Part shown: piece by piece, positions 14,428-38,510 of the stretch
How the letters are laid out: every line of letters starts with the position of its first letter
Numbering within the stretch: the first letter of the stretch is position 1
Source: a virus
Lineage: Duplodnaviria > Heunggongvirae > Uroviricota > Caudoviricetes
Length of the DNA: 64,000 bases
Virus record (IMG/VR): IMGVR_UViG_3300037790_000024
Strand: one strand, 5' to 3'
The notes under the pieces: model-generated
Seen by the model: only the letters and a program-made list of their open reading frames with translations
Databases searched by the model: none
What the model was told of the DNA's origin: nothing
Translations under genes and position numbers: made by a program

Positions 14428-14504
14428 TAATAATATTTAACACTCCAAATGTTTCCCTGTGTGTTTGGTGAGTGTTACAAATAGGCTCCTATATTGATCC
14501 CTAA

Positions 14505-14612
14505 TTATTACTAAATAGTATGTATGTATAGATCAATTATCACTAAATAGTATATATTACTAAATATAACTAAATAGTATATATTAATATATATATAACT
14601 AAATATTAGAGG
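14505..14612. repeat. AT-rich repeat array (CTAAATAGTATATAT units) in divergent intergenic region
   Basis: 3-4 copies; located between denV (-) and first plus-strand early-type gene. Confidence 0.6.
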
Positions 14613-14742
14613 GTAACAGATCTTGGAATGAAAGTCAAGAAGTTTTTTTAAGTGTACACCAATACCACAGAGTTGTGAGAAAAGTGTTGACTTATAATTT
14701 TAACACTGGTAAAGTGGTTCCTAAATCAACTGAGGAGAAAAT

Positions 14743-18309: not shown

Positions 18310-18325
18310 CAAGAATTCAGGTAAT

Positions 18326-18522
18326 TTTCATTCTCATTCAAAATCCTAAAAGAGCCTTGTACATGAAAGTGTACAGGGCTTTTTCATTTCCATTCAAAAT
18401 GCTAAAGAATTCAGAGAATTTTGATTTGATTTCAAAATCGATCCTGAGCCAAATGTAGAGAGAAATTTCATTCTGTTTCAAAATGCAAGTGTAGAGCGAT
18501 TTTTCATTTGAATTCAAAATCC
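18326..18522. repeat. iteron-like direct repeats (4 copies of about 21 bp TTTCATTC-N-CATTCAAAATSC, plus a half copy) with irregular spacing
   Basis: Copies near 18326, 18382, 18466, 18502; spacers 36-84 bp; non-coding. Confidence 0.6.
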
Positions 18523-18570
18523 TTAAAAAAATAGCGGGAACTTTTGAAATCATTTTTATATTGCACACGA

Positions 18571-18586
18571 TGGAACGAATCTTGCA
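18571..18586 (+). promoter_or_regulatory. sigma54-like -24/-12 motif (TGGAAC-N5-TTGCA), copy 1 of a conserved intergenic motif
   Basis: Followed by conserved AGCAAAAATCATGCCAATAAAAAA extension shared with the copies at 21351 and 23203. Confidence 0.35.
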
Positions 18587-18780
18587 TTAGCAAAAATCAT
18601 GCCAATAAAAAACATTCGCGCAGGGTGTGCGTATCACCCCCAGAGCACCGCTGATCGAACCGTTAATAATATCGTAGCAAAACCCCACCACCAGATCAAC
18701 CCCTAAATTAAAAATAAATAAAATAATTTTTTATTCCTTGTATATGCACAAAGCGATCAGAAAAAAGATCGATTAAAGTG

Positions 18781-18809
18781 TTGACATTAGGATCTGCATG
18801 TTTTATTCT
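18781..18809 (+). promoter_or_regulatory. sigma70-like promoter (TTGACA-17-TATTCT)
   Basis: Consensus -35, 17-bp spacer, upstream of the 18844 gene. Confidence 0.45.
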
Positions 18810-18843
18810 GTGCCCATGCTTAATGACAACAGAGGATCAGAGT

Positions 18844-19359
18844 ATGAAAGAGAACAGACAAAAATTGCGCTTATTTGACAAGGAGCTAGGAAACAAAGTG
18901 ATCATTAATGTTTGCTGGCAGCACTTATCAAGAAATAAGGAAGCCTATCTGTCGGTAGGCATTCAGGAAGTTAAGTTGTTTGGAAAAAAGATCCAAGGCT
19001 GTCAAGAGCAGATTAGAGCGATCAAACAAATGGGCTGTCCTGATGATTTCTCCTTTTTAGTGGATCATCATCTACTGTCCCGATCTGGTTTTGGTAAGCA
19101 TGAGATCGCAAACTTCACTTATTTTTTAAAAAAGACAAAAGAGCATCTATCTAAGCCACCAGCAGACAGATCCGATCTATGGACTGTTGATCGTCTTGTC
19201 GATTATTCAGGCTTGACAAAAAATCAGATCGAATCTATGGTATTACTTCCAATTGACAGCAGAGAGATCGAAGAAGCTCTAAAGGAGAAAAGAGATCTAA
19301 CACTGTTGACACTGGAAACAATAGAGAATAAGATCAACATTCCATTAAATAAAAGATAA
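18844..19359 (+). CDS. hypothetical protein (GATC-rich island)
   Basis: Start at MKENRQKL with RBS; track ORF starts 18778. Confidence 0.5.
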   Translation: MKENRQKLRLFDKELGNKVIINVCWQHLSRNKEAYLSVGIQEVKLFGKKIQGCQEQIRAIKQMGCPDDFSFLVDHHLLSRSGFGKHEIANFTYFLKKTKEHLSKPPADRSDLWTVDRLVDYSGLTKNQIESMVLLPIDSREIEEALKEKRDLTLLTLETIENKINIPLNKR

Positions 19360-19371
19360 GAGGATCTAATT

Positions 19372-19872
19372 ATGGAACTAAAAGAAGCCGTTCAGATTTT
19401 CCGCAAACTCTCAAACGAGTTAAACGCTGATTTCTCAGCCTATCCACTAGAGGAGATCAAAGAAGGGATCAAGAGATTGCAAGACGAATCAAACCCTGAT
19501 GATCTCATGCATTCAGCGGGTATTCTGGCTGTATGTATGAATGCTACAGATGACGACATGCACGATCACACGATAGAGGAGTTGATCGATCTGTTAGAAG
19601 AAGTTGATCAGATAGGGATTGATGATTATCTGGATCTTTCGGCGGGTGAAGTGAGATTGATCCATGAAGACGAGATCGACGAGATTTGGACAGAATCTCT
19701 AATTGATTTGATCAAAGAATGTTACGATCTCGGAGATGTGCCAAGCTTTGTTAGCATTGACTGGGAACAGACAGCCCAAAATTGCAAAGTTGACGGAAAA
19801 GGGCATCATTTCAGCGGTTATGATGGATCGGAGCACTACAGCGCACCATTTTACATTTTCCGCACAAACTAG
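19372..19872 (+). CDS. hypothetical acidic protein
   Basis: 166 aa, RBS aagaggatctaattATG. Confidence 0.5.
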   Translation: MELKEAVQIFRKLSNELNADFSAYPLEEIKEGIKRLQDESNPDDLMHSAGILAVCMNATDDDMHDHTIEELIDLLEEVDQIGIDDYLDLSAGEVRLIHEDEIDEIWTESLIDLIKECYDLGDVPSFVSIDWEQTAQNCKVDGKGHHFSGYDGSEHYSAPFYIFRTN

Positions 19873-19881
19873 GGGGATCAG

Positions 19882-20106
19882 ATGCTAGGAATGTTTAAGA
19901 AACAGAAGCCAGATCAAGATCCTGTAGCCTTAGAGCTTGACGCAAGCCGATCAGCCTTGTTTATGCCTCAGGATCTGACAAGGGAACAATGCGAAGCCCT
20001 ACAAGGCTTGCTAGATGTCGCAAGACGCAACCCAGAACAGCCGATCATTGTCTCCTTCAGTGGGAAAAGCTGGCATATTAGCAAAAACTTAATTTCTTTT
20101 ATTTAA
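19882..20106 (+). CDS. hypothetical protein
   Basis: 74 aa. Confidence 0.45.
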   Translation: MLGMFKKQKPDQDPVALELDASRSALFMPQDLTREQCEALQGLLDVARRNPEQPIIVSFSGKSWHISKNLISFI

Positions 20107-20119
20107 AGAGGATTAAAAA

Positions 20120-20344
20120 ATGAAAAATACAGCGGAATTTCTGGGATATATAAAAGTTCCCTTTGATTTTGAAACTGAAGAAGAGACAGATCACTACGAT
20201 CTTGTGTCTGCGTTAGAATTTCCAAAAGGCTGGGATTTTTCGGAATACTATTGCAGCCCAATTGCAAGTGTGATAATATTTGAGTGTGATCATCTTCCAA
20301 CAGAGGAAGAGATCCAAACAATAGAGAAAACTTTAAGAGGCTAA
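20120..20344 (+). CDS. hypothetical acidic protein
   Basis: 74 aa, RBS aagaggattaaaaaATG. Confidence 0.45.
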   Translation: MKNTAEFLGYIKVPFDFETEEETDHYDLVSALEFPKGWDFSEYYCSPIASVIIFECDHLPTEEEIQTIEKTLRG

Positions 20345-20348
20345 TACC

Positions 20349-20465
20349 ATGAAAAAACACAACTTGACAAAGCAAGAAAAGAAACAAGCCCAACAACAAC
20401 GGAGAGCAAGAAGATCCGCACGTGGCAGACAGTGGACAGATCAAACCTATAAAGTAATATATTAA
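20349..20465 (+). CDS. small basic protein (38 aa)
   Basis: MKKHNLTKQEKKQAQQQRRARRSARGRQW...; manual translation. Confidence 0.3.
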   Translation: MKKHNLTKQEKKQAQQQRRARRSARGRQWTDQTYKVIY

Positions 20466-20538
20466 AAGTTTACTATTACCACTTGATCCGATCAGGTGGT
20501 AATGTTAAACTACAAGAAAATGACAAAGGGATAATATT

Positions 20539-20643
20539 ATGAAAACACTAAAAGCAGTTGTTCTATTTCTTCTCGCAGTGGTGCTGCTACCCCCTGCGAT
20601 CATTTCTCTTTTCTTTTTAATTAGCATATTGCTAGCCCTTTAA
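20539..20643 (+). CDS. small hydrophobic membrane peptide (34 aa)
   Basis: MKTLKAVVLFLLAVVLLPPAIISLFFLISILLAL; manual translation. Confidence 0.3.
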   Translation: MKTLKAVVLFLLAVVLLPPAIISLFFLISILLAL

Positions 20644-20655
20644 GGAGCGTTTAAC

Positions 20656-21006
20656 ATGTATCAAATTATTAGTCTTTATAAAATCGCAGAACTTGACAAC
20701 TGGGAAAACGGGATCACAGAATCAACAGCACATGCCCGAATTGATCTAAAATGGAGGAATTCAGATCTTAAGGGTTTGATCTCTGATGTGTCAGAGTTTG
20801 TCGGGGACAAAGAACCAGCGATCAACCCCTGCGGAGATGAAGCAAGCCGGATCGATTGGCAAGTGTATGAAAACGGGGAAGGATACCCAGCGACAGAGCG
20901 AGAGATGGATCAATTTAAGGAAGGAAAGATCGATCTTTATCTTTGCACATATACGGCACATGTTGAGCAAGTGACAAAGCCGGATCTTGAAAAGCTTTTA
21001 AAATAA
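20656..21006 (+). CDS. hypothetical protein
   Basis: 116 aa, RBS aaggagcgtttaacATG. Confidence 0.5.
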   Translation: MYQIISLYKIAELDNWENGITESTAHARIDLKWRNSDLKGLISDVSEFVGDKEPAINPCGDEASRIDWQVYENGEGYPATEREMDQFKEGKIDLYLCTYTAHVEQVTKPDLEKLLK

Positions 21007-21018
21007 GAGGATTAAAAA

Positions 21019-21114
21019 ATGGATGAATTAGAATTATTTCTTGACAATTACGAAGATCAAGAGATCGATTTATCAGACGATGACACAAGCGATCCAGAGA
21101 TGGATCAGGAATAA
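21019..21114 (+). CDS. small acidic peptide (31 aa)
   Basis: MDELELFLDNYEDQEIDLSDDDTSDPEMDQE; RBS aagaggattaaaaaATG; followed by terminator. Confidence 0.25.
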   Translation: MDELELFLDNYEDQEIDLSDDDTSDPEMDQE

Positions 21115-21127
21115 AAAGAAAGAAGAA

Positions 21128-21155
21128 GCCCGACAAAATGATCGGGTTTTTTCTT
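21128..21155 (+). terminator. rho-independent terminator
   Basis: GCCCGA-caaaatga-TCGGG followed by TTTTTT. Confidence 0.6.
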
Positions 21156-21169
21156 GTTCATTAAATAGT

Positions 21170-21185
21170 TGGCACAGTGTTTGCA
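21170..21185 (+). promoter_or_regulatory. sigma54-like -24/-12 motif (TGGCAC-N5-TTGCA), consensus match
   Basis: ttGGCACagtgtTTGCAtgg; part of repeated intergenic element. Confidence 0.4.
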
Positions 21186-21350
21186 TGGCTAGCAAGCACC
21201 ATGCCAGATCAAATATTATGCCAGAAAATCGGATATGCTTTAGAGCGAATATAGGGCCGTTTTTAGCCGTTTTTAATGTTTTAAGCCATACTTGCCCAAG
21301 GTGGATCGAGATCTCCCAACAGGAGCGAATTTAGCCCTATTTTTGAGAGT

Positions 21351-21366
21351 TGGCACGATGTTTGTA
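21351..21366 (+). promoter_or_regulatory. sigma54-like motif (TGGCAC-N5-TTGTA) within a repeated intergenic element of about 150 bp
   Basis: Element 21240-21420 is a near-repeat of 23100-23265. Confidence 0.35.
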
Positions 21367-21497
21367 TAAGCAAAACTCATGCCAACATAAAATAGAAAAA
21401 ATATAAAAATAAATGTTAAAAAGTGTTGATCAAGTTCTTTATATATGAGACCATGATCCCGTAGTTTTAAATTAAACATTATTAAAGGATCGAGAAT

Positions 21498-21662
21498 ATG
21501 AAAACTTTACTTGTTTGTGCTGTTGTCTGGTTTGGCTGTCTGTCTGCCCTTCCTGATGATCAATCAGCTATTGAGTTTAAAAGCTCAACCCCGTATGATC
21601 GTTGCATGGCACAATTTGAAGGATCAGAACACATTGATCAGTGTGCAGAGTTGAAAATTTAA
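21498..21662 (+). CDS. small secreted protein (54 aa, signal peptide)
   Basis: MKTLLVCAVVWFGCLSALPDD...; RBS aaaggatcgagaatATG. Confidence 0.3.
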   Translation: MKTLLVCAVVWFGCLSALPDDQSAIEFKSSTPYDRCMAQFEGSEHIDQCAELKI

Positions 21663-21688
21663 ACTATATAAAAGAAGAGGATCAGACA

Positions 21689-21988
21689 ATGAGATATATT
21701 AAAGCTTTTGATTTATGGAACCCTGCGATCTCTGGATTGATCGAGCAAGGCAAGATACAGGTGCAGTCAGGGCAGATCGCATATCGTCAAAACAGATCAG
21801 ATGTTTCTATAATAGACGAGATCAAAAAAGGCTATGTTAGAGCATTCCACGGATCGACAGTGAAGGAAGCGAGATCAAAATACTTGGAATACAAAGCCGC
21901 AGAAAAGCGAGCAGCTCGCAGACTAGAGATCAGGAGACAGATCAAAGCTCTAGAGGCAGAGCACGATCAATTAATAAAAGAAATGTAA
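21689..21988 (+). CDS. hypothetical protein
   Basis: Start at MRYIKAFDL with RBS aagaagaggatcagacaATG (track ORF starts 21641 with GTG). Confidence 0.45.
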   Translation: MRYIKAFDLWNPAISGLIEQGKIQVQSGQIAYRQNRSDVSIIDEIKKGYVRAFHGSTVKEARSKYLEYKAAEKRAARRLEIRRQIKALEAEHDQLIKEM

Positions 21989-22091
21989 AAAAGATTGATC
22001 AAAGTGTTTACTTTTAAAAATAGATGATTTAGAATTGTTTGCAAGTGGCGGGGAATTGGTTCCCGCCCTTAACTCAAAAAAGGTGATTAAA

Positions 22092-23021
22092 ATGTCGAAT
22101 ATTGTTACTTTCCCATCTCGCGCCGTTGTTGCTCCTGTTGCTGAAATTGCAACCCCATCAACTGAGATCATCACAACCCCAACAGAGCAAGATCGAGCTG
22201 TCTTCTCTGATTATGCCCACCACGATCAGAAAATGTTTGATATTGAGAGTTTGCCTCTTTCCAGTGAGTATGGAGTTATCCCAGATAAAAAAGGCTTGTT
22301 TGTGAATGGCAAAAATATCAACATTGTCTCCCATCATTATGAGATCGTGCAGCCTAAAAAAGTATATGAAACATTTGTAAATGTTGCTGAGTCTTCAGGG
22401 CTTACAATTAACAAGGTGCTGACAAACCCCGCTAACGGTGGCCTGATGATCTCTGCCCTGTTTGACCAAGTGAAGATCACCGGAGAGGATCACAACGTCA
22501 ATTTAGTGTTCTACACTTCGCACTGTGGCAAATATAAAACCTTCCTTACTCTGGATATGCTGCGCATGGCTTGTTTTAATCAGGTGCCTTGTCTCTATCA
22601 GAATAAAGATCGCTTTATCTTTGCAGAAAAGCACTACAAAAATGCGCTTAATATTGACTTGCTGCAAAAGTATCTGGAAAACATTCCTGCCAGTGTTCAG
22701 GCATACAACACTAAAGCGGAAATGCTCAAAGATATTAAATTGAGCAAAGCGGATTTTGTCGAATGGTACAAGGAACAGATCAAACTGTCAGAGGCTAGCA
22801 AGCAATACGACAGCAAGATCGCAAACATTGCCAACACGTACACCTTCGCAGACGGTCAAGAGATTGCCGGAGACGGTACAGCATGGAAAGCATTTAACGC
22901 TATTACATACATGAACACGCACCAAGGAAGAAATACACAATTTAAGGAAGAAAACAAACTTATTAAAGGAGGAAATAACTCTATTGAGATGATGGATCAG
23001 CTTTTGGCTATGGCTGGCTAA
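22092..23021 (+). CDS. hypothetical protein, about 310 aa (possibly DUF932-like plasmid/phage protein; unverified)
   Basis: Start MSNIVTFPS with RBS aaaaaggtgattaaaATG; largest gene of the island; followed by terminator. Confidence 0.55.
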   Translation: MSNIVTFPSRAVVAPVAEIATPSTEIITTPTEQDRAVFSDYAHHDQKMFDIESLPLSSEYGVIPDKKGLFVNGKNINIVSHHYEIVQPKKVYETFVNVAESSGLTINKVLTNPANGGLMISALFDQVKITGEDHNVNLVFYTSHCGKYKTFLTLDMLRMACFNQVPCLYQNKDRFIFAEKHYKNALNIDLLQKYLENIPASVQAYNTKAEMLKDIKLSKADFVEWYKEQIKLSEASKQYDSKIANIANTYTFADGQEIAGDGTAWKAFNAITYMNTHQGRNTQFKEENKLIKGGNNSIEMMDQLLAMAG

Positions 23022-23042
23022 TTCATCCCAGCATCACCAAGG

Positions 23043-23070
23043 AAGCCCGCACAAAAGCGGGCTTTTTTGT
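23043..23070 (+). terminator. rho-independent terminator
   Basis: AAGCCCGC-acaaaa-GCGGGCTT then TTTTTTG. Confidence 0.65.
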
Positions 23071-23202
23071 GTCTGTTGATCCGGTATACTCTAAAACCGA
23101 TTTTAAAGCCCTTTTTAGCGCTTTTTATAATATTACGCTATAACTGCCCTAGCATGATCGAGATCTCCCAGTGTGTGCGAATTCGGGCTTTTCTAGGCCA
23201 CT

Positions 23203-23218
23203 TGGCACGATAATTGAT
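23203..23218 (+). promoter_or_regulatory. sigma54-like motif (TGGCAC-N5-TTGAT), copy in repeated intergenic element
   Basis: cttGGCACgataaTTGATcaagcaagatctatgccaacaaaaaaa. Confidence 0.3.
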
Positions 23219-23268
23219 CAAGCAAGATCTATGCCAACAAAAAAATTTAAAAATATATGTTTTAACTG

Positions 23269-23296
23269 TTGATCTGATCTGTGATTGTGTTAAGAT
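23269..23296 (+). promoter_or_regulatory. sigma70-like promoter (TTGATC-16-TAAGAT)
   Basis: Upstream of small gene at 23333. Confidence 0.35.
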
Positions 23297-23332
23297 GTCC
23301 TTAAGTTAATCAGAAACGAAGAGGATCAAAAG

Positions 23333-23440
23333 ATGGATAAATTACTAGACGGTTTAGAGTTGGTACTGGAGCTGGCTGCTTTTTGTACTTTGTTAGTATT
23401 GCCTGCCACTATCGCAGCTTTACATTATGGCATTATCTAA
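23333..23440 (+). CDS. small hydrophobic peptide (35 aa)
   Basis: MDKLLDGLELVLELAAFCTLLVLPATIAALHYGII; RBS gaagaggatcaaaagATG. Confidence 0.25.
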   Translation: MDKLLDGLELVLELAAFCTLLVLPATIAALHYGII

Positions 23441-23453
23441 GAGGATCACAAAA

Positions 23454-23615
23454 ATGACTAAATCACAAAAAATCTCAAAAGCTGTTCAATCTCTCATTGT
23501 CTGGGAGCGTATCCACGCCGAAGACATTGTAACAGGAAAAGAGGATCGGAAAGTGAGCAGAGAAGCGATCAAACAATATCGGGAAGAGCTTAAAGAGTTG
23601 GGTATTAACTTATAA
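23454..23615 (+). CDS. hypothetical protein (53 aa)
   Basis: Start MTKSQKISK with RBS aagaggatcacaaaaATG. Confidence 0.45.
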   Translation: MTKSQKISKAVQSLIVWERIHAEDIVTGKEDRKVSREAIKQYREELKELGINL

Positions 23616-23640
23616 CTTTAATAAACCCATCCCCCAAAAG

Positions 23641-23668
23641 AGGCCGCCACTAGAGCGGCCTTTTTATT
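23641..23668 (+). terminator. rho-independent terminator
   Basis: AGGCCGC-cactaga-GCGGCCT then TTTTATT. Confidence 0.65.
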
Positions 23669-23929
23669 GCCTGTTATTATTCCAGATAATTTAAAAAATC
23701 TATCCTGATCTTTTCCCTGTATATTGTCCCCCTAATATGAGCTAAGCCGCTCTGTGTGCCCTTCTAACGGGCTTTTATTCTCCAGCCTTTGCCCTGTATC
23801 ACTGAAGGAAAGAAAACAAGTAAAAACACGGTATATAAGCTTGTATGGCAAAGGCTAATTATTATATATCCCAATATAGCGAGGCCATATAGATAAGCTA
23901 TGCTTATATAGATGTGCTAAGCACACTTA

Positions 23930-24120
23930 TAAACAAATGTCAACTAATTAAGAAAAATTAATATAAAAATAGATATATATAATAAAAACTAATATTAAAT
24001 TTTAATATTAATAAACTAATATAATTAATATTAATAAATAATATTAACAAACAATGTTCCACGTGGAACACGTGAAAGAGATTAATATTAATTTGTCCCC
24101 CCTATGTTGAACAACATAAT
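23930..24120. repeat. AT-rich region with TAATATTAAT-type repeats and two perfect palindromes (GTTCCACGTGGAAC at about 24056-24069; TATGTTGAACAACATA at about 24103-24118)
   Basis: Non-coding 850-bp gap between terminator 23668 and promoter 24470; candidate origin/operator. Confidence 0.5.
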
Positions 24121-29927: not shown

Positions 29928-30179
29928 ATGGAACTTTGTAACCACAAACACTCTTGGAAAGGAAGGTGCTGCTGCAACTGCAAGTTTCAATGTCAGATTG
30001 TAGAGCACGTTGCTAACTCCGATCACTTCTCTCATTGGGGTTGTTCAATGATGCACGTTGTCCATCAGATTTATAAACAAGAGGGTATGTCTGATCCAGA
30101 AGACGTAGGAGTGGTTGTTAAGATGAAAGATGAACACGGTATTTGTGAAATGCATGAATGGAGGAACAATGTTTCATAG
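29928..30179 (+). CDS. Cys-rich small protein
   Basis: MELCNHKHSWKGRCCCNCKFQC. Confidence 0.45.
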   Translation: MELCNHKHSWKGRCCCNCKFQCQIVEHVANSDHFSHWGCSMMHVVHQIYKQEGMSDPEDVGVVVKMKDEHGICEMHEWRNNVS

Positions 30180-30387
30180 ATTCAAAAACAGACTTATTAT
30201 TCTACCACTGTTAATAATCATTCCTGTAGTGGCTCTTGTAGTAGGCACTGTAGATGGTTGTTGGGAGATTATAACGACAGGTTCTTACACAGAAACTTGG
30301 GAGTGGTTAAAAGAGGGTTGGAGTATTTTTAAAGAAGGTGTAGTTATTTTCTGGAAAGGGGGAGATCCTAGTGAAAATATTATTTAA
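30169..30387 (+). CDS. membrane protein
   Basis: MFHRFKNRLIILPLLIIIPVVALVVG TM helix. Confidence 0.45.
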   Translation: MFHRFKNRLIILPLLIIIPVVALVVGTVDGCWEIITTGSYTETWEWLKEGWSIFKEGVVIFWKGGDPSENII

Positions 30388-31336
30388 AGGACTATTTGGA
30401 AGTCACTTGTACGGACTTAATACAGAGAACAGTGACAGAGACTATAAAGCTGTATACCTGCCAGAGCCTGAGGATATTATCCTAGGTAGAGCTAAGGGAA
30501 GTATTTCTCACTCTACAGGCGGGAGTGATAGCAAGAATTCCTCAGAAGATGTAGACACAGAGTATTTTTCTCTTCAAGAGTTTGTCAAACTGGCTTGTCA
30601 GGGACAAACTGTAGCTATTGATATGCTTCACACCCCTCCTAGCCTAACTTTGGAAACTAGTGAGATCTGGGAACATCTTGTCTCTCATCGTCAATTATTC
30701 TATTCTAAAAATATGGACTCCTTTATGGGCTACGTTAAGAAACAGGCTGCTAAATACGGGATTAAAGGAAGTAAGGTAGCTGCATTGCAAGAGATTCTTG
30801 ATGTGATTGAAGAGGAAATGGATACAAACGGAGATATTCCTGATATATCTTATCTGCGTCATTCTCTGCCTGTCAATGAATATTGTTTCTGGGTGGATGA
30901 AGAAAACAACGGACAGAGCTTTTATTCGGTGAATGGGTCTTGGATGCATGATGTAATTTCTGTAGGGGAACTCCAGTCTAGAGTGCAAAAGCAGTATGAC
31001 AATTATGGACACAGAGCAAAACAAGCCGCTAATAATGAAGGTATTGATTGGAAAGCAATTAGTCATGCTCTAAGAGCTGGGTATCAACTTTACCATATTT
31101 TTGTAGAGGGAGATTTTGAATATCCTCTGATAGAAACCTACTACCTTAAGCAAGTTAAGGCTGGAGAGCTAGACTATACAACAAATGTTGCAGAGGAGCT
31201 GGAGCTTCTTGTGGAGATGTTAGATGCTAAAAGTGCTGAAGCACCTTTCCCAGAAAAGGTAGATTTTCAATACTGGGATGAATGGGTGTATTCTGTCTAC
31301 CTACAACATATTTTATTAGAGGAGGGGCTGCTATGA
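30371..31336 (+). CDS. nucleotidyltransferase (Pol-beta superfamily minimal NTase fold; resembles 'predicted nucleotidyltransferase' PF10127-type)
   Basis: N-terminal hG[GS]x9-13 DxD motif: LFGSHLYGLNTENSDRDYKAVYLP; GTG start with RBS; 321 aa. Confidence 0.6.
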   Translation: MKILFKGLFGSHLYGLNTENSDRDYKAVYLPEPEDIILGRAKGSISHSTGGSDSKNSSEDVDTEYFSLQEFVKLACQGQTVAIDMLHTPPSLTLETSEIWEHLVSHRQLFYSKNMDSFMGYVKKQAAKYGIKGSKVAALQEILDVIEEEMDTNGDIPDISYLRHSLPVNEYCFWVDEENNGQSFYSVNGSWMHDVISVGELQSRVQKQYDNYGHRAKQAANNEGIDWKAISHALRAGYQLYHIFVEGDFEYPLIETYYLKQVKAGELDYTTNVAEELELLVEMLDAKSAEAPFPEKVDFQYWDEWVYSVYLQHILLEEGLL

Positions 31337-31794
31337 GAGTGGTACAAGGAGATTTGTTTGAAGCCTTTAGGCTAGGCGTTGTAGATGCTATTGCCCACTG
31401 TGTAAACTGCAAAGGTGTTATGGGTAGTGGAGTGGCTTTACAGATGAAGGAAATCTACCCTGAGGTGTATAGAGTGTATAAAGATTTTGTGCAGGATTGC
31501 ATTTCGGAGGGCTATGTGCCTTTAGGAGAAAGCTTAGAAGTACACACCCAACACGGAGTTGTTTACAATTTGTTTGGACAAGAATATTATGGGAGGGATC
31601 AAAGACATCTTGATTATGGTGCTTTAGCAGACTCTCTAATAGGTATGTCTGTAGATCTTCCTGAGGGAACTACTGTAGGCTTTCCCTACAAGATTGGTTG
31701 TGATAGAGCTGGAGGCAACTGGGAGGTTGTACAAGAGATTATTTTCCACTTCCTAGAACGGGAAGGAATTAACGTAGTATTTTATCAGTTATGA
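31333..31794 (+). CDS. macro domain protein (ADP-ribose / Appr-1''-p processing)
   Basis: VVDAIAHCVNCKGVMGSGVALQ matches macro-domain glycine-rich loop (cf. AIVNAAN..LLGGGGVDGAI); ATGA overlap with upstream NTase. Confidence 0.7.
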   Translation: MRVVQGDLFEAFRLGVVDAIAHCVNCKGVMGSGVALQMKEIYPEVYRVYKDFVQDCISEGYVPLGESLEVHTQHGVVYNLFGQEYYGRDQRHLDYGALADSLIGMSVDLPEGTTVGFPYKIGCDRAGGNWEVVQEIIFHFLEREGINVVFYQL

Positions 31795-32951
31795 TTTTAG
31801 TAGGAAGTAGAGCCGCTAAATACTGGGGAATAAACAGAAGTGAGCCTAAAGACACAGATGTTTGGTATAGAGGAGAGCAACCTGAAGCTGTCCCCCACCA
31901 AGATAGTTTTTACTGTCCAGAACACATCTATGATTTGATGGAAGTAGATGAGAAAGGAGTAGCCACTCCAGATTGTCTGTACACCCTTAAGTGTTCTCAT
32001 TTAGGGGTTAATGCACATATAGAAAATGAGCGTATCTGGTGGAAGCATGTAAAAGATATTCTCTGGTTTAAAGAAGAACATTGCTGTATTCTTATTCCTG
32101 ACTTATATAAGGCACTGGTGGAATACTGGCTATCCTCTGGTAAGGATAAAGACCATTTATCCCTTAAAATGGATAAAGAAGACTTCTTTAATGACTTTGT
32201 AGAATATCGCTATGATCATGATTATCTACATGAGCTTGTAGCATACCCAAATACCCCTGTGTATGAAAAGTGTCTTAAAGAAGGGGAAGAAGTTCTACTT
32301 GACAAACAGTTGTTTGACAGGTTAGACTACTGTGACAAAATAAGAATGTTCAGAGAAGAGATAACTGTCATAGCTTGTGAAAGATGGTTGTTAAATCCAA
32401 AGAACACATTGAGTTGGTATCAGGCATACCATGAAAGCCTGAAAAAGACAATCACTCGTTTAACAAAAAACTGGGCTTGTGATTTCATTATTATGAACTT
32501 AGAGGAATTTGTGATCCCTGAGTTTAGTTATTTTAAACATATACTAGAAACTTTAAAGGAGGAATTAATGCCTAAAGTAGATTTAGAGGTATTTGAAAAA
32601 TTGAAAAAAGCACTTCAGTCAGAAGAAGGTCTAGGTCATTTAGTTATAGACTTAGCTGAAGCAGAGGAGTGGATGGATTACTCTGAACCTCAAATAGGAA
32701 GTGGATTAGGGTGGCAAGAACGGAGAGATAAGATCAAGGAAGTATTAGACTCCTTTGGATATGTCCACTTAGATCAAGAAGGTGGAGGAGAAGGTGGTAG
32801 TGAATACTGTTATGGGGTGTTTAAGCTGGGAGAAAAATTTTATCGTGCTGAATACTCCTATTATTCTCATCATGGATATGAGTATGATGGTATCGTAGAT
32901 ACCCTTCGAGAAGTTAAACCTGTTGAGAAGACAATCACAGTGTACGAATAA
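31791..32951 (+). CDS. second NTase-like protein (386 aa) with N-terminal GS...DxD motif and unknown C-terminal domain
   Basis: LVGSRAAKYWGINRSEPKDTDVWY; ATGA overlap with macro gene. Confidence 0.55.
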   Translation: MILVGSRAAKYWGINRSEPKDTDVWYRGEQPEAVPHQDSFYCPEHIYDLMEVDEKGVATPDCLYTLKCSHLGVNAHIENERIWWKHVKDILWFKEEHCCILIPDLYKALVEYWLSSGKDKDHLSLKMDKEDFFNDFVEYRYDHDYLHELVAYPNTPVYEKCLKEGEEVLLDKQLFDRLDYCDKIRMFREEITVIACERWLLNPKNTLSWYQAYHESLKKTITRLTKNWACDFIIMNLEEFVIPEFSYFKHILETLKEELMPKVDLEVFEKLKKALQSEEGLGHLVIDLAEAEEWMDYSEPQIGSGLGWQERRDKIKEVLDSFGYVHLDQEGGGEGGSEYCYGVFKLGEKFYRAEYSYYSHHGYEYDGIVDTLREVKPVEKTITVYE

Positions 32952-35535: not shown

Positions 35536-35778
35536 TTAGTATCCTTGAATCAAAACAATCTTAATATGTTCTTCTGGATCAAGATCTTCCTCGGCTACAC
35601 ACTCAGCCATGTATTCACTCTCGTAAATATATTCTTCACCTACCCAAGTAGCTGACATGGCATATTGACCATGATCAGCCTCTACCCTAACCTCCATCTC
35701 TGGATCAAGGTTTTCCAACTGTTTAATTAATTCTCTCACTTTCATATTAAAACTCCTCGTTATAACTACCAACATCAA
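35536..35778 (-). CDS. hypothetical acidic protein
   Basis: 80 aa. Confidence 0.4.
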   Translation of the reverse strand: MMLVVITRSFNMKVRELIKQLENLDPEMEVRVEADHGQYAMSATWVGEEYIYESEYMAECVAEEDLDPEEHIKIVLIQGY

Positions 35779-36652
35779 AAATGTTTGGCATACCTTTTAA
35801 AGTCCAGTGACGAATCATCTGTCTGCGATCATCAAAGACAGCATAAACATTATATTTTCCCCTAATGTGATTTTCGTACAACTCGTCTTTAATTACAGAG
35901 TCTTTACGGGAATCTCCGGCCTGTCTCATATACAGGGTAGGTTTAGGAGTTATATAGGAAGAAATCCATTCATAAGTTTCTTTATAACAACTTCCATCCC
36001 TACCTGATAAGAAGATAATATCTATCCCAGTTTGAGAACGAATCCCTGAGACAGCAGCTATAATAGACTCTCTAGGAGAATCTTCCCCCACCTTGCTCCA
36101 ATCAAAAGGCGATCTTCCTTCCATAGAGGCCACAGTACCGTCAATATCACAGATAATGCAATCTGGTAGATCAGGAGCATGCTCATAAAGTTTAACACTT
36201 CCAAACTGTCGTTCAAACCTTATATACTGATCCCACAGTAGAGCTTCAGACAAACCCCCCTGTCTCTGAGCGTTACGCTTAACTAAAGTTTCCCAAGGAC
36301 AAGGGAAGAGTTTTTCCTCATAATCATACCCACAGTCCTTAGCCCACTGCTTCCATTTATTACGAGCTTTGGTGCTAAGGTTGGTATCTGAAATTATGAT
36401 GTTGGAGTTATTGTGTGTAGCCCACTTAGCTTTCTGCAACTGAACCTCAGTAACCTTATTCTCATTGTTTTTTGAAAATTTATACTTAGTCCAGTCCCTG
36501 ACAGAATTTGTAAACAATGAAAAGCGGATCTCATCTCTATTGAGGTTAGCCCATTTCTCACCTTTAGCTATACCTTCTATCTTGAACTCTTCAGCCCAAG
36601 TAGTTTTACCTGAAGCGCTGGCTCCAATTGTTAAAATAATTTTTGGCATCAT
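35747..36652 (-). CDS. pseT: polynucleotide 5'-kinase/3'-phosphatase (T4 Pnk homolog)
   Basis: MMPKIILTIGASASGKTTWAEEF vs T4 [22 protein letters not shown]; C-terminal HAD-like phosphatase DIDGT...DDR; 301 aa, same length as T4 Pnk. Confidence 0.85.
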   Translation of the reverse strand: MMPKIILTIGASASGKTTWAEEFKIEGIAKGEKWANLNRDEIRFSLFTNSVRDWTKYKFSKNNENKVTEVQLQKAKWATHNNSNIIISDTNLSTKARNKWKQWAKDCGYDYEEKLFPCPWETLVKRNAQRQGGLSEALLWDQYIRFERQFGSVKLYEHAPDLPDCIICDIDGTVASMEGRSPFDWSKVGEDSPRESIIAAVSGIRSQTGIDIIFLSGRDGSCYKETYEWISSYITPKPTLYMRQAGDSRKDSVIKDELYENHIRGKYNVYAVFDDRRQMIRHWTLKGMPNIFDVGSYNEEF

Positions 36653-36682
36653 CCCTCCTTTAACAATCCCTAGTTATTTTCA

Positions 36683-36931
36683 CTACACTCTCTCCCCTTC
36701 TATTCCAAAGGCTTCAAACATTTCAAAGATACCTTCACTCCAGCCAACATACCAATCAAAACTAGAAATAATAGCCTCCCCATCCTCATCATACCCGAAG
36801 ATAACATAAGTGTCGTCGTTATCACATTGTACACTAACGTAGCAGTCTGGATTATTTTTCAACCACTTCCATCTCCCTGCATCTGTAGGAATTTCATCAA
36901 ATTTATTTTTGTATAGATCAACATCAGTCAT
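36683..36931 (-). CDS. hypothetical protein
   Basis: 82 aa. Confidence 0.45.
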   Translation of the reverse strand: MTDVDLYKNKFDEIPTDAGRWKWLKNNPDCYVSVQCDNDDTYVIFGYDEDGEAIISSFDWYVGWSEGIFEMFEAFGIEGERV

Positions 36932-36933
36932 AG

Positions 36934-37215
36934 CTACCTCCCTTCATAAAACCACATATACGCATTACAGTAGGCATGCACTGCCCCCTCTGTCATCCCA
37001 GTGTTATGATCATGCTGTAGATGGACAGGCCATTTAAGAAAATTAGGAGGAAACAGCCTCCAATCAATATACTTGCTAGTTATACCAGCAGGGGGCTTGT
37101 TTATCAACAACTCGTTGCAAAACATGCAACGGCCTTTTTGTCTTCTAACATACTCCTCTCTAACCTCCTTTCTTTCTCTAGGAGAGAGTTTTTCATAGTT
37201 GGTGGGGAGATTCAT
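36934..37215 (-). CDS. hypothetical Zn-binding protein
   Basis: CMFCNE...HLQHDHNTG...HAYCN. Confidence 0.45.
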   Translation of the reverse strand: MNLPTNYEKLSPRERKEVREEYVRRQKGRCMFCNELLINKPPAGITSKYIDWRLFPPNFLKWPVHLQHDHNTGMTEGAVHAYCNAYMWFYEGR

Positions 37216-38510
37216 TATGAAGCATCCTCCTCGTCCACGTTTTCTTCTTTGTAGATCCCTTCCATAATGCGGAATGCTTTAGATTTGTTTTTATAAAACT
37301 TGGGTGTCAAACCTTGTCCATCTACACGGATAACAACACCTTCATTAACATGAGATGGATCTCTGTAGTCTTCTGTCAACACCTCAGGGCGGTCTGTTAG
37401 CTGATCTACCAGTTCTACTAGTTTATCTTTATCTCCATCATAAACAAAAGGCTCTACCAGATCAAGAGGTGGCTCAATGCCACGTTGCTCACACCAAGCT
37501 ACCAACTGAGGCTCTGTCAAATCCACCTCTGTTCCATCTACAGTGGTGTATGTAACACGGTAGGCGTAAAACTTGTAGTTTCCTTCAGGGCAACCATACT
37601 TGTACACCATAGTGTCTCCATACTTCTTAGTGTAAGCCTTGTCTTTTAGAGTTTTTACATTGTGGCTTCCCATAATAGGTTTGTCGTTAGCGTAGCCCAC
37701 GATCTCCCCATATACAGTAACACCTCTTTCCAGATGAGGCTTTAGTTGCTCCAGAATCTCAAAGCGAAAGGCTTCTGATCCATGAAAACCGTCTTTGTCT
37801 TTATCGACAGATTTCAAAACAACTCTTCGTGTGCCTGCAACATATTCCCACTCTTCTGTTTTGAAGATAGGCACTACTTTATTAATCAACTTCTTCCACT
37901 CTGGAAGATTTTTAGTCACCAAGGTGTTAGAATAACGAGCTGAAGTGCCATGTCCTTTAGCCTGAATAGAGATAACAGATCCAACAGGAATACGATCAAC
38001 ACTATATTTAAACTGATCTGTATCTACGTGCTGGTGGAACAAAGGAGTTTCAACAGCTTTACGAGCTTGTTTTTTCTTGTTGCCAATAGCTCTGAGGGTG
38101 TGAGGATTGACATATTTCTTAGCAATGCCAACTCCATTCAGTTCTTCAAACTGATCTCCCAAAGAAAAAGTGTCAATATCATAGCCAGTGAACACCAAGG
38201 AGTTAATATCAGTGAAATAGCCACAAGATTTAACTCCTAAGAAAGGTTGTGCTCTCACCTTACCGTTGTCGTCAAAAAATCCTTTCTTGTCAGGATCTTT
38301 GTTTTTATCTGAGTGGCGATAAAGATTGTTGTTTGACAAAAACTCTGGAGACAACTGAGTGTCTGGTGGGAAGAACACACCAACATACCCCACTTCCAGT
38401 TCTTTTGAAACAATAACTGGTTCTCCAAGTACATACGCCACTTGAATTTTATTTGCCTTTTCGATAGGCTCAACTTTGTCAATTTTTGCAATAATACCAC
38501 AATAGTTCAT
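37215..38510 (-). CDS. RNA ligase (Rnl2-like nucleotidyltransferase motif KxHGT) fused to N-terminal tRNA-binding OB-fold (EMAP/Myf-like) domain
   Basis: N-term CGIIAKIDKVEPIEKANKIQVAYVLGEPVIVSKEL resembles tRNA_bind domain; IQAKGHGTSARY resembles Rnl2 motif I EKIHGTNFS; adjacent to pnk; 431 aa. Confidence 0.6.
   Translation of the reverse strand: MNYCGIIAKIDKVEPIEKANKIQVAYVLGEPVIVSKELEVGYVGVFFPPDTQLSPEFLSNNNLYRHSDKNKDPDKKGFFDDNGKVRAQPFLGVKSCGYFTDINSLVFTGYDIDTFSLGDQFEELNGVGIAKKYVNPHTLRAIGNKKKQARKAVETPLFHQHVDTDQFKYSVDRIPVGSVISIQAKGHGTSARYSNTLVTKNLPEWKKLINKVVPIFKTEEWEYVAGTRRVVLKSVDKDKDGFHGSEAFRFEILEQLKPHLERGVTVYGEIVGYANDKPIMGSHNVKTLKDKAYTKKYGDTMVYKYGCPEGNYKFYAYRVTYTTVDGTEVDLTEPQLVAWCEQRGIEPPLDLVEPFVYDGDKDKLVELVDQLTDRPEVLTEDYRDPSHVNEGVVIRVDGQGLTPKFYKNKSKAFRIMEGIYKEENVDEEDAS

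Follow-up and report, generated by a model that had tools for sequence, protein, structure and literature searches.

A sharply bounded GATC-saturated island spanning three early-type operons of a tailed phage

The DNA analysed here, a 64,000-nt stretch (the window) of the IMG/VR virus record IMGVR_UViG_3300037790_000024 (Caudoviricetes), contains an island of about 5 kb in which the tetranucleotide GATC, the canonical Dam palindrome, occurs at a density far above that of the remaining phage sequence. The island comprises 13 genes, all located on the + strand and organised in three early-type units, and its GATC load evidently reflects selection at the level of the DNA. An earlier reading of this DNA, made from its letters only (the sequence-only reading), had described the segment 18560-23670 as saturated with GATC. 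Exact counting and a k-mer comparison bear this out, as the excess is significant and the signature of the segment is distinct. The two hand counts given there, 16 sites in 18781-19380 and 3 sites in 30001-30600, are both exact.

GATC excess and its boundaries

For the tally of GATC sites the island was taken as 18653-23567, and statistics were calculated over a 5020-nt island. Within these limits lie 107 of the 327 GATC sites of the window, which corresponds to 21/kb, compared with 3.7/kb across the remaining 59 kb (a 5.7-fold ratio). From 18 to 24 kb the consecutive kilobases contain 12, 30, 20, 27, 11 and 12 sites, and any other kilobase contains 0-9. The edges are sharp, with background density found directly beyond the first palindrome on the left and the last terminator on the right (both described below). 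From the backbone rate 18.7 sites would be predicted in 5020 nt, against the 107 observed (Poisson P = 1e-44). Among all 256 tetramers GATC is the top outlier (z = 20.4), followed by AAAA (z = 11.7). Simulations that preserve the dinucleotides of the island give 23.7 +/- 4.7 expected sites (z = 17.7), and those that preserve its trinucleotides give 57.1 +/- 7.5 (z = 6.7). The backbone does not avoid GATC, its observed/expected ratio (O/E) being about 1 with 220 sites outside the island.

Closely spaced sites are likewise concentrated here, as 50 of the 78 adjacent pairs of the window that are at most 31 bp apart fall in the island. The spacing is roughly geometric with a median of 33 bp, and no excess power was found at periods of 9.5-12 bp in comparison to random placement, which means that the sites are not helically phased. 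The repeat families of the region are few and short and do not explain the GATC count.

Selection on the tetranucleotide

The constraint is limited to the four bases GATC. The flanking bases track the strand composition, no extended motif is present, and GGATCC (0 of 107) as well as CGATCG are absent among the island sites. Coding and non-coding DNA of the island carry GATC at 20.8/kb and 23.0/kb, respectively. In the island genes 79 of 125 opportunities to form a GATC by synonymous codon choice are taken (63%), compared with 91 of 485 (19%) in 17 backbone genes, and a synonymous shuffle using the island's own codon usage yields 35.7 +/- 4.0 such sites where 79 are observed. The island proteins also offer more of these opportunities (10% vs 6.3% of codons) and are richer in Ile, Asp, Leu, Gln and His. 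The spacers between each terminator, or the left edge, and the next promoter (18606-18780, 21156-21423 and 23076-23268), which are predicted to be untranscribed, contain 12 GATC in 636 nt (about 19/kb). These spacers are thus as GATC-dense as the genes, and the target is therefore more likely to be DNA than mRNA. The suggestion of the sequence-only reading that the density is deliberate fits with these results, since synonymous usage in the island, and also in the sister phage treated below, looks selected at the DNA level.

Taken together, the data require that, inside a single transcriptional compartment, selection favours a high number of GATC sites. A simple Dam-sensitive promoter switch is thereby excluded as a full explanation, and a passive foreign relic becomes unlikely.

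GATC in related phages

A sister phage (L002), whose DUF932 gene is 71% identical to that of the window, has a GATC density of 14 and 22/kb in the final 2 kb of the corresponding island, which falls to about 3/kb past the same terminator. Its synonymous GATC use amounts to 56% in the island and 18% in the backbone. At the position of operon 3 it carries three genes which are non-homologous to those of the window and equally GATC-rich. In the DUF932 gene, 7 of the 11 GATC sites of the window are kept in L002 at 71% nucleotide identity, where by estimate about 0.25-0.35 would be expected per site, and private sites have been gained in both lineages. On an independent contig of 45% G+C (L061) the DUF932 gene has 15.7 GATC/kb and uses 62% of its opportunities. 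The homologous early region of a further relative, L072, reaches 7.6 GATC/kb (27% of the opportunities used), whereas its backbone avoids GATC (1.5/kb, 7%). The first promoter of L072, which is homologous to promoter P1 of the window, retains the GATC of the spacer (TTGACT-TTA-AGATC).

No GATC enrichment was found in the relatives L070, L071, L003, L005, L076-L086 and Vibrio phage RYC. In some relatives GATC is purged throughout the genome or contig, namely in Alteromonas phage PT11-V22 (0.98/kb; MN877442.1, comprising L074 and L075; O/E about 0.3), in L062 (0.7/kb) and in L063 (0/kb, with zero GATC in 8 kb). Phage T5 does not exhibit a GATC excess in its first-step-transfer DNA either.

One explanation for these patterns would be a sponge or decoy, in which the replicating dense array titrates SeqA, MutH or Dam and thereby disturbs host replication control or spares the rest of the phage genome. 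It appears to be the number of sites that is selected, the array holds the 50 of 78 closely spaced pairs found in 64 kb, and the GATC-avoiding relatives suggest that host GATC-binding factors harm this phage group. However, 107 sites per genome are few compared with those of a host chromosome, the sites lack helical phasing, the backbone keeps its 220 sites, and titration gives no reason for the exact coincidence of the array with three operons. We regard this explanation as unlikely.

Operons and genes of the island

The features of the island and of the DNA directly upstream of it are as follows.

18311-18521, + strand: array of five degenerate tandem repeats (about 36-47 nt each; unit about AAGWRTWCAGRG..TTTCATTY..ATTCAAAATS), located immediately upstream of the island and of the first palindrome
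18781-21155, + strand: unit 1, with P1, eight genes (18844-21114) and a terminator at about 21125-21155
18781-18809, + strand: sigma70-like promoter P1, TTGACA-17-TATTCT, with a GATC within the spacer, 10/12 match
18844-19359, + strand: gene 1, 171 aa, no family match, 25 GATC/kb
19372-19872, + strand: gene 2, 166 aa, acidic, belonging to a family of about 57 phage proteins that includes BAV81023 of Vibrio phage RYC
19882-21114, + strand: six small genes of 74, 74, 38 (basic), 34 (hydrophobic), 116 (ORFan) and 31 aa (acidic), which close operon 1
20470-20505: inverted repeat ATTACCAC..GTGGTAAT between the 38-aa and 34-aa genes, enclosing two GATC (TTGATCCGATCA)
21125-21155, + strand: intrinsic terminator of operon 1, CCCGAC..TCGGG followed by a T run
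about 21424-23075, + strand: unit 2, with a promoter-like site (-35 TTGATC), genes 21498-21662 and 21689-21988, an internal promoter at 22007, the DUF932 gene and a terminator
21498-21988, + strand: two genes, for a 54-aa peptide with an N-terminal hydrophobic leader and for a 99-aa protein (33 GATC/kb)
22007-22035, + strand: sigma70-like promoter, TTTACT-17-TAGAAT, whose upstream module is homologous to that of P1 (repeat D9)
22048-22072: GC-rich hairpin GGCGGGGAATTGGTTCCCGCC in the DUF932 leader, between promoter and ribosome-binding site, conserved in L002 (about 85-105)
22092-23021, + strand: DUF932 gene, PF06067 and phrog_1221, 309 aa, 11.8 GATC/kb, hidden Markov model match above cutoff
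23038-23075, + strand: intrinsic terminator of operon 2, 13-bp stem, conserved in L002
23269-23670, + strand: unit 3, with a weak promoter-like site, genes 23333-23440 and 23454-23615 and a terminator
23333-23615, + strand: operon 3 genes, for a 35-aa hydrophobic peptide and a 53-aa protein
23638-23670, + strand: intrinsic terminator at the right edge of the island, past which GATC is at background density

All three rho-independent terminators which the sequence-only reading had named were recovered. The small peptide genes that it listed also exist, and most of them are called as genes on independent contigs as well. Its two sigma70-like promoters fared differently: the one at 18781 scores 10 of 12, whereas the one at 23269 reaches only 8 of 12 by eye and is not listed by the promoter scan. 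As a class, promoter-like sites are not more frequent than in shuffled sequence (25 vs 20.1 +/- 4.4), and for this reason only the strongest sites are trustworthy. The tandem repeats at 18311-18521 might serve as an array of protein-binding sites, for instance as iterons or an enhancer.

Among the 13 island genes the DUF932 gene alone has a family match. The confident structural model of its product (predicted local distance difference test, pLDDT, 85.8) has no informative structural neighbour. Relatives of this gene were found at one locus in a scan of a genome collection (a phage-like contig of a Colwellia metagenome-assembled genome) and at 10 loci in a metagenome scan. For the 166-aa protein, the AlphaFold model (pLDDT 87.6) gave no Foldseek match at E < 0.001 and a PDB profile search came back empty. 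Its identity as ArdA was considered and rejected, as the Pfam match (E = 0.09) is below cutoff and no PDB profile or fold match was obtained. The 116-aa gene is an ORFan with no relative in a collection of 5.8 billion proteins.

Seven ribosome-binding sites of the island read GAGGATC, and the island holds 7 of the 12 plus-strand copies of this heptamer in the window. Phage T4 clears its early transcripts by means of the RegB endoribonuclease, which acts at GGAG. By analogy, GAUC in the early mRNAs might be the target of an endoribonuclease that clears early transcripts, and the GAGGATC copies, several of them at ribosome-binding sites, are consistent with this. The terminator-to-promoter spacers are equally dense, though, and the motif is the canonical Dam palindrome in a phage that encodes a Dam-family methylase. 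Such an RNA-level target appears very improbable.

The repeated intergenic element

The three operons are separated by a repeated element with a full length of about 170 nt, another copy of which follows the DUF932 gene of L002. The earlier claim of a repeated intergenic element is hence substantiated: the stretches 21256-21431 and 23108-23274 are 69% identical, and a copy of the core lies at 18571-18604.

18571-18604, no strand assigned: core copy 1, an inverted box pair (TGGAACGAATCTTGC on the + strand, TGGCATGATTTTTGC on the - strand) at the left edge of the GATC-dense zone
21170-21206, no strand assigned: core copy 2, an inverted sigma54-type pair with a 7-nt central spacer
21256-21431, + strand: element copy A, comprising GATCGAGATCTCCCA, a sigma54-type palindrome (21351-21384), a tract rich in A and the -35 box TTGATC belonging to the promoter that follows
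23108-23274, + strand: element copy B, with a sigma54-type palindrome at 23203-23236

The core reads TTGGCAY-N5-TTGC-N4(7)-GCAA-N5-RTGCCAA and thus consists of two sigma54-type -24/-12 boxes placed face to face. On sequence level these boxes match the sigma54 consensus (TGGCAC-N5-TTGC, with GG and GC one helical turn apart). Six boxes of this kind are present in the window, where 0.44 would be expected, and all of them are in the island. An exact scan of IMG/VR revealed the palindrome in 55 viral contigs (L006-L060) with 34-57% G+C. In these 55 loci (0.49 Mb) there are 81 inverted pairs and 113 single boxes, where about one is expected by estimate, and the logo of 267 boxes is T-TGGCA-Y-R-N4-TTGC-W. 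The palindromes often form arrays of 2-4 pairs, three being common, upstream of sigma70-like promoters. They also occur in Alteromonas phage PT11-V22 (L075) at about 63.8 and 70.2 kb of the record. Hairpin-like covariation is absent from the N5 segments. Single boxes are only modestly more often co-oriented with the next gene than opposed to it (58 vs 33, P = 0.011), and most boxes are part of inverted pairs. A sigma54 activator gene was not found among the window proteins scanned, and our literature search retrieved no description of inverted face-to-face pairs of sigma54-type boxes. Their occurrence across very different viral contigs points to a second, unexplored regulatory element of phage early regions. 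None of the 55 palindrome loci is GATC-rich, and the palindrome and the GATC load are therefore separable.

Six contigs from six samples (L064-L069; JGI 3300037784, 3300037780, 3300037781 and 3300012855; SRR12659294 and SRR12659219) match the window at 100% identity. Several of these contigs are interrupted within the island, and the repeated element is the probable break point.

The exchange of genes at this element bears on another explanation, according to which the dense GATC would serve as a handle for mismatch repair. Maximal access for MutHLS could create a local zone of low mutation, or a recombination hot spot or barrier could arise via MutH nicks in heteroduplexes. Addition of GATC lowered the mutation rate of phiX174 eightfold (PMC5014478). 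The island is also a cassette-swapping region, with L002 having different genes behind the same repeated element, and one island gene is an ORFan. Accessory genes are, however, the least obvious target for fidelity, whereas the essential genes have no excess, and repair saturates at far fewer sites than one per 46 bp. This makes for a distinctly unlikely explanation in our view.

Composition and origin of the island

The dinucleotide distance of the island is 140-168, compared with 30-80 elsewhere in the window. Its relative abundance (rho) of CpG is 0.76 vs 0.39 in the backbone, its AC/GT value is 0.71 vs 0.91, and codon preferences differ as well. The backbone is strongly CpG-depleted (rho 0.39, and 0.17-0.3 in places), and the early accessory region is much less so. 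An island of raised CpG is found at the homologous place in all relatives examined (L002, L003, L070, L071 and L072), irrespective of a GATC excess. As relatives share the composition island without sharing the GATC excess, the shift in composition is ancestral and the GATC load a later, lineage-specific overlay. This overlay was gained more than once.

The sequence-only reading had considered a horizontally acquired moron or a plasmid-derived cassette. The distinct composition, the units with promoters and terminators of their own and the accessory-type genes agree with that proposal. A recent origin from a plasmid or an integrative and conjugative element (ICE) is not supported, as blastn and tblastn searches against 72,556 plasmids gave no homologues of the island. 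The label 'plasmid/ICE-style' for the protein at 22092-23021 is not supported either, as it goes back solely to the Pfam family DUF932. With regard to morons, terminators, promoter-like sites and a distinct composition are all present, and the homologous region in all relatives examined means that the island is not a recent insertion. Similarity searches with the island DNA against phages and plasmids gave a sole match of 200 nt, in a gene of Vibrio phage RYC which is not GATC-rich. All close homologues of the island are located on phage-like contigs, in the same early region. Scans for further relatives with island-specific DNA patterns gave nothing, or chance matches in high-GC contigs, and an Rfam search gave only sub-threshold chance matches.

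These data also bear on whether the island is a passive relic, imported from a GATC-rich mobile pool, whose excess has no function in this phage. Its dinucleotide and codon signatures are distinct, and an excess of this kind does exist elsewhere, the cluster B3 mycobacteriophages having a genome-wide fourfold one (PMC4841201). Yet relatives have the same composition island without the GATC excess, the conservation of sites exceeds background and two lineages continue to gain new ones, the non-homologous L002 genes at the same locus are equally rich, and no plasmid or phage source emerged from the similarity searches. A relic thus seems improbable.

Methylase and phage backbone

35017-35535, - strand: Dam-family N6-adenine methyltransferase (PF05869, 42.7 bits vs cutoff 28.1)

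As noticed in the sequence-only reading, the phage encodes a methyltransferase of the Dam family, with a PF05869 match above cutoff. In comparison with the TIGR01712 equivalog the score is 43.3 vs a cutoff of 97, which makes the enzyme a member of the family and not an equivalog. Its specificity for GATC we take to be that of characterised family members, and it is presumably the writer of methyl-GATC. The best cultured match is the methylase of the Alteromonas myovirus PT11-V22 (62% identity), whose gene order (DNA polymerase, primase-helicase, Clp protease, PhoH, methylase) resembles that of the window. That PT11-V22 avoids GATC despite its similar methylase leaves the specificity of the methylase family in such phages in doubt. 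For the terminase, homologues in myoviruses of Klebsiella, Aeromonas and Vibrio show about 50-54% identity.

With a methylase of its own, the phage might use heavy N6-adenine methylation to shield the early region prior to the synthesis of any phage protein. The threat would be a nuclease, silencer or sensor of the host which methyl-GATC inhibits. The island is organised like an immediate-early accessory region, and the corresponding region of L072 is enriched although its backbone avoids GATC. On the other hand, no defence system with such a property was identified in this analysis, first entry of the island DNA is an assumption, and the first-step-transfer DNA of T5 lacks such an enrichment. 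We see little chance for protective hypermethylation of this type.

Several further observations concern the backbone. An RNA-repair set is encoded at 30371-32951 and 35747-38510, consisting of an RlaP-family nucleotidyltransferase, a DUF7275 protein, a polynucleotide kinase-phosphatase and an RNA ligase. The pair of RlaP and DUF7275 is also carried by L002. This set suggests a countermeasure against host tRNA or anticodon nucleases. AT-rich repeat regions are located at 14480-14620 and 23950-24100 (units ACTAAATAGTATATAT and TAATATTAA). The repeats at 14480-14620 mark the switch between leftward and rightward genes, and three independent assemblies start there (14531, 14542 and 14658); this region is a candidate for an origin, for an end of the genome or for the boundary of a repeat. 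L002 shares with the window a palindrome containing CACGTG (24054-24077).

A possible methylation-state device

Tentatively, we favour the reading that the island represents three early-type accessory operons which selection has loaded with Dam sites and which are read by methylation-state readers such as SeqA. It is preferred because the phage encodes a Dam-family enzyme and its backbone does not avoid GATC, and it appears possible rather than probable. The phage's own methylase would leave the virion DNA fully methylated. After the first round of replication the island would then be by far the densest hemimethylated GATC patch of the genome, and host methylation-state readers, above all SeqA, would bind to it. 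In E. coli, SeqA occupancy tracks the frequency of GATC and its spacing, with low values in highly transcribed DNA (PMC2912659). Access of MutH and the mismatch-repair system is another known GATC-dependent activity that varies with site density. Binding of SeqA could couple early gene activity to replication, most likely by sequestering the operons and shutting them off after the start of replication. The benefit would rise with site number, and a benefit of this kind would fill coding, non-coding and untranscribed DNA alike with sites. The modules of terminator, palindrome and promoter between the operons might be regulatory cassettes which also permit the swapping of gene cassettes.

Several points weigh against this proposal. 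PT11-V22, with a 62%-identical methylase, avoids GATC genome-wide (0.98/kb). The specificity for GATC is attributed to the methylase from its family alone, Dam and SeqA of the host are assumed from the Alteromonadales/Vibrionales affinities of the matches, and the early timing of the island is deduced from its gene organisation. An array optimised for SeqA is made slightly less likely by the absence of 10-11 bp phasing in the GATC spacing. Hemimethylation would be shorter-lived in the presence of a phage Dam, and a few sites would suffice for a promoter switch.

In a more far-reaching form, the gene-spanning array of Dam sites would be an epigenetic device, written by the phage's own methylase in one infection and read by SeqA-type readers of the host in the next, after the first replication round, so that early accessory (possibly anti-defence) operons are sequestered or switched, and it would have evolved repeatedly in marine phages whose relatives purge GATC. 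This version we hold to be rather doubtful. The strong, compartment-specific selection in itself implies a dose-dependent action of methylation state or of GATC-binding proteins on early phage DNA that has not been described previously. If so, phage methylation would go beyond protection from restriction and control the timing of gene expression or the way in which the phage handles its host. Already known are origin and pac clusters of GATC, Dam-regulated promoters, phage GATC avoidance and the genome-wide excess of B3 mycobacteriophages (PMC4841201). A gene-spanning, sharply bounded GATC-saturated phage island was not found in our literature searches.

Comparison with known systems

Clusters of GATC that are read by Dam and SeqA are known from oriC and the dnaA promoter of E. 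coli and from pac and oriR of phage P1, and their function depends on the methylation state, the number and the closeness of the sites. The island shares with them that bare GATC is locally over-represented where a Dam-type methylase is carried. These clusters are, however, 150-300 bp long, non-coding or limited to a single gene and tied to an origin or pac, whereas the island extends over 5 kb and 13 genes and is written through codons. The array of 4.9 kb has no DnaA-box or pac context and no helical phasing, and the neighbouring AT-rich repeat regions (14.5 kb and 23.95-24.1 kb) are GATC-poor.

With respect to its architecture, the island resembles the hyperplastic regions of T4-type phages, which contain repeated promoter/stem-loop cassettes (PeSLs). 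In both cases small ORFan genes are flanked by repeated modules, here of terminator, palindrome and early promoter, and in the sister phage the genes are swapped. The two are not related in sequence, the inverted core is of the sigma54 type here, and no GATC load is described for PeSLs. Plasmid leading regions and phage morons are similar in having their own promoters and terminators, small accessory genes, a DUF932-family protein and an atypical composition. In contrast to plasmid leading regions, no plasmid homologues were found for the island, ArdA is unsupported, the region is ancestral to the phage group, and an anti-defence function is not assigned to any gene.

Regarding GATC itself, the fourfold excess in the cluster B3 mycobacteriophages is unexplained and runs against the usual avoidance of palindromes (PMC4841201). 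That excess is genome-wide, partly driven by GGATCC and found in phages of a host without Dam, whereas the excess described here is confined to one island, does not include GGATCC (0 of 107) and is accompanied by a Dam-family gene. Phages of Dam+ hosts such as phiX174 and T7 avoid GATC (PMC5014478). Their avoidance lies on the same selective axis, namely phage DNA versus Dam, MutH and SeqA, and relatives of the phage studied here avoid GATC too. In the island the sign of this selection is the opposite, and it is confined to one compartment of the genome.

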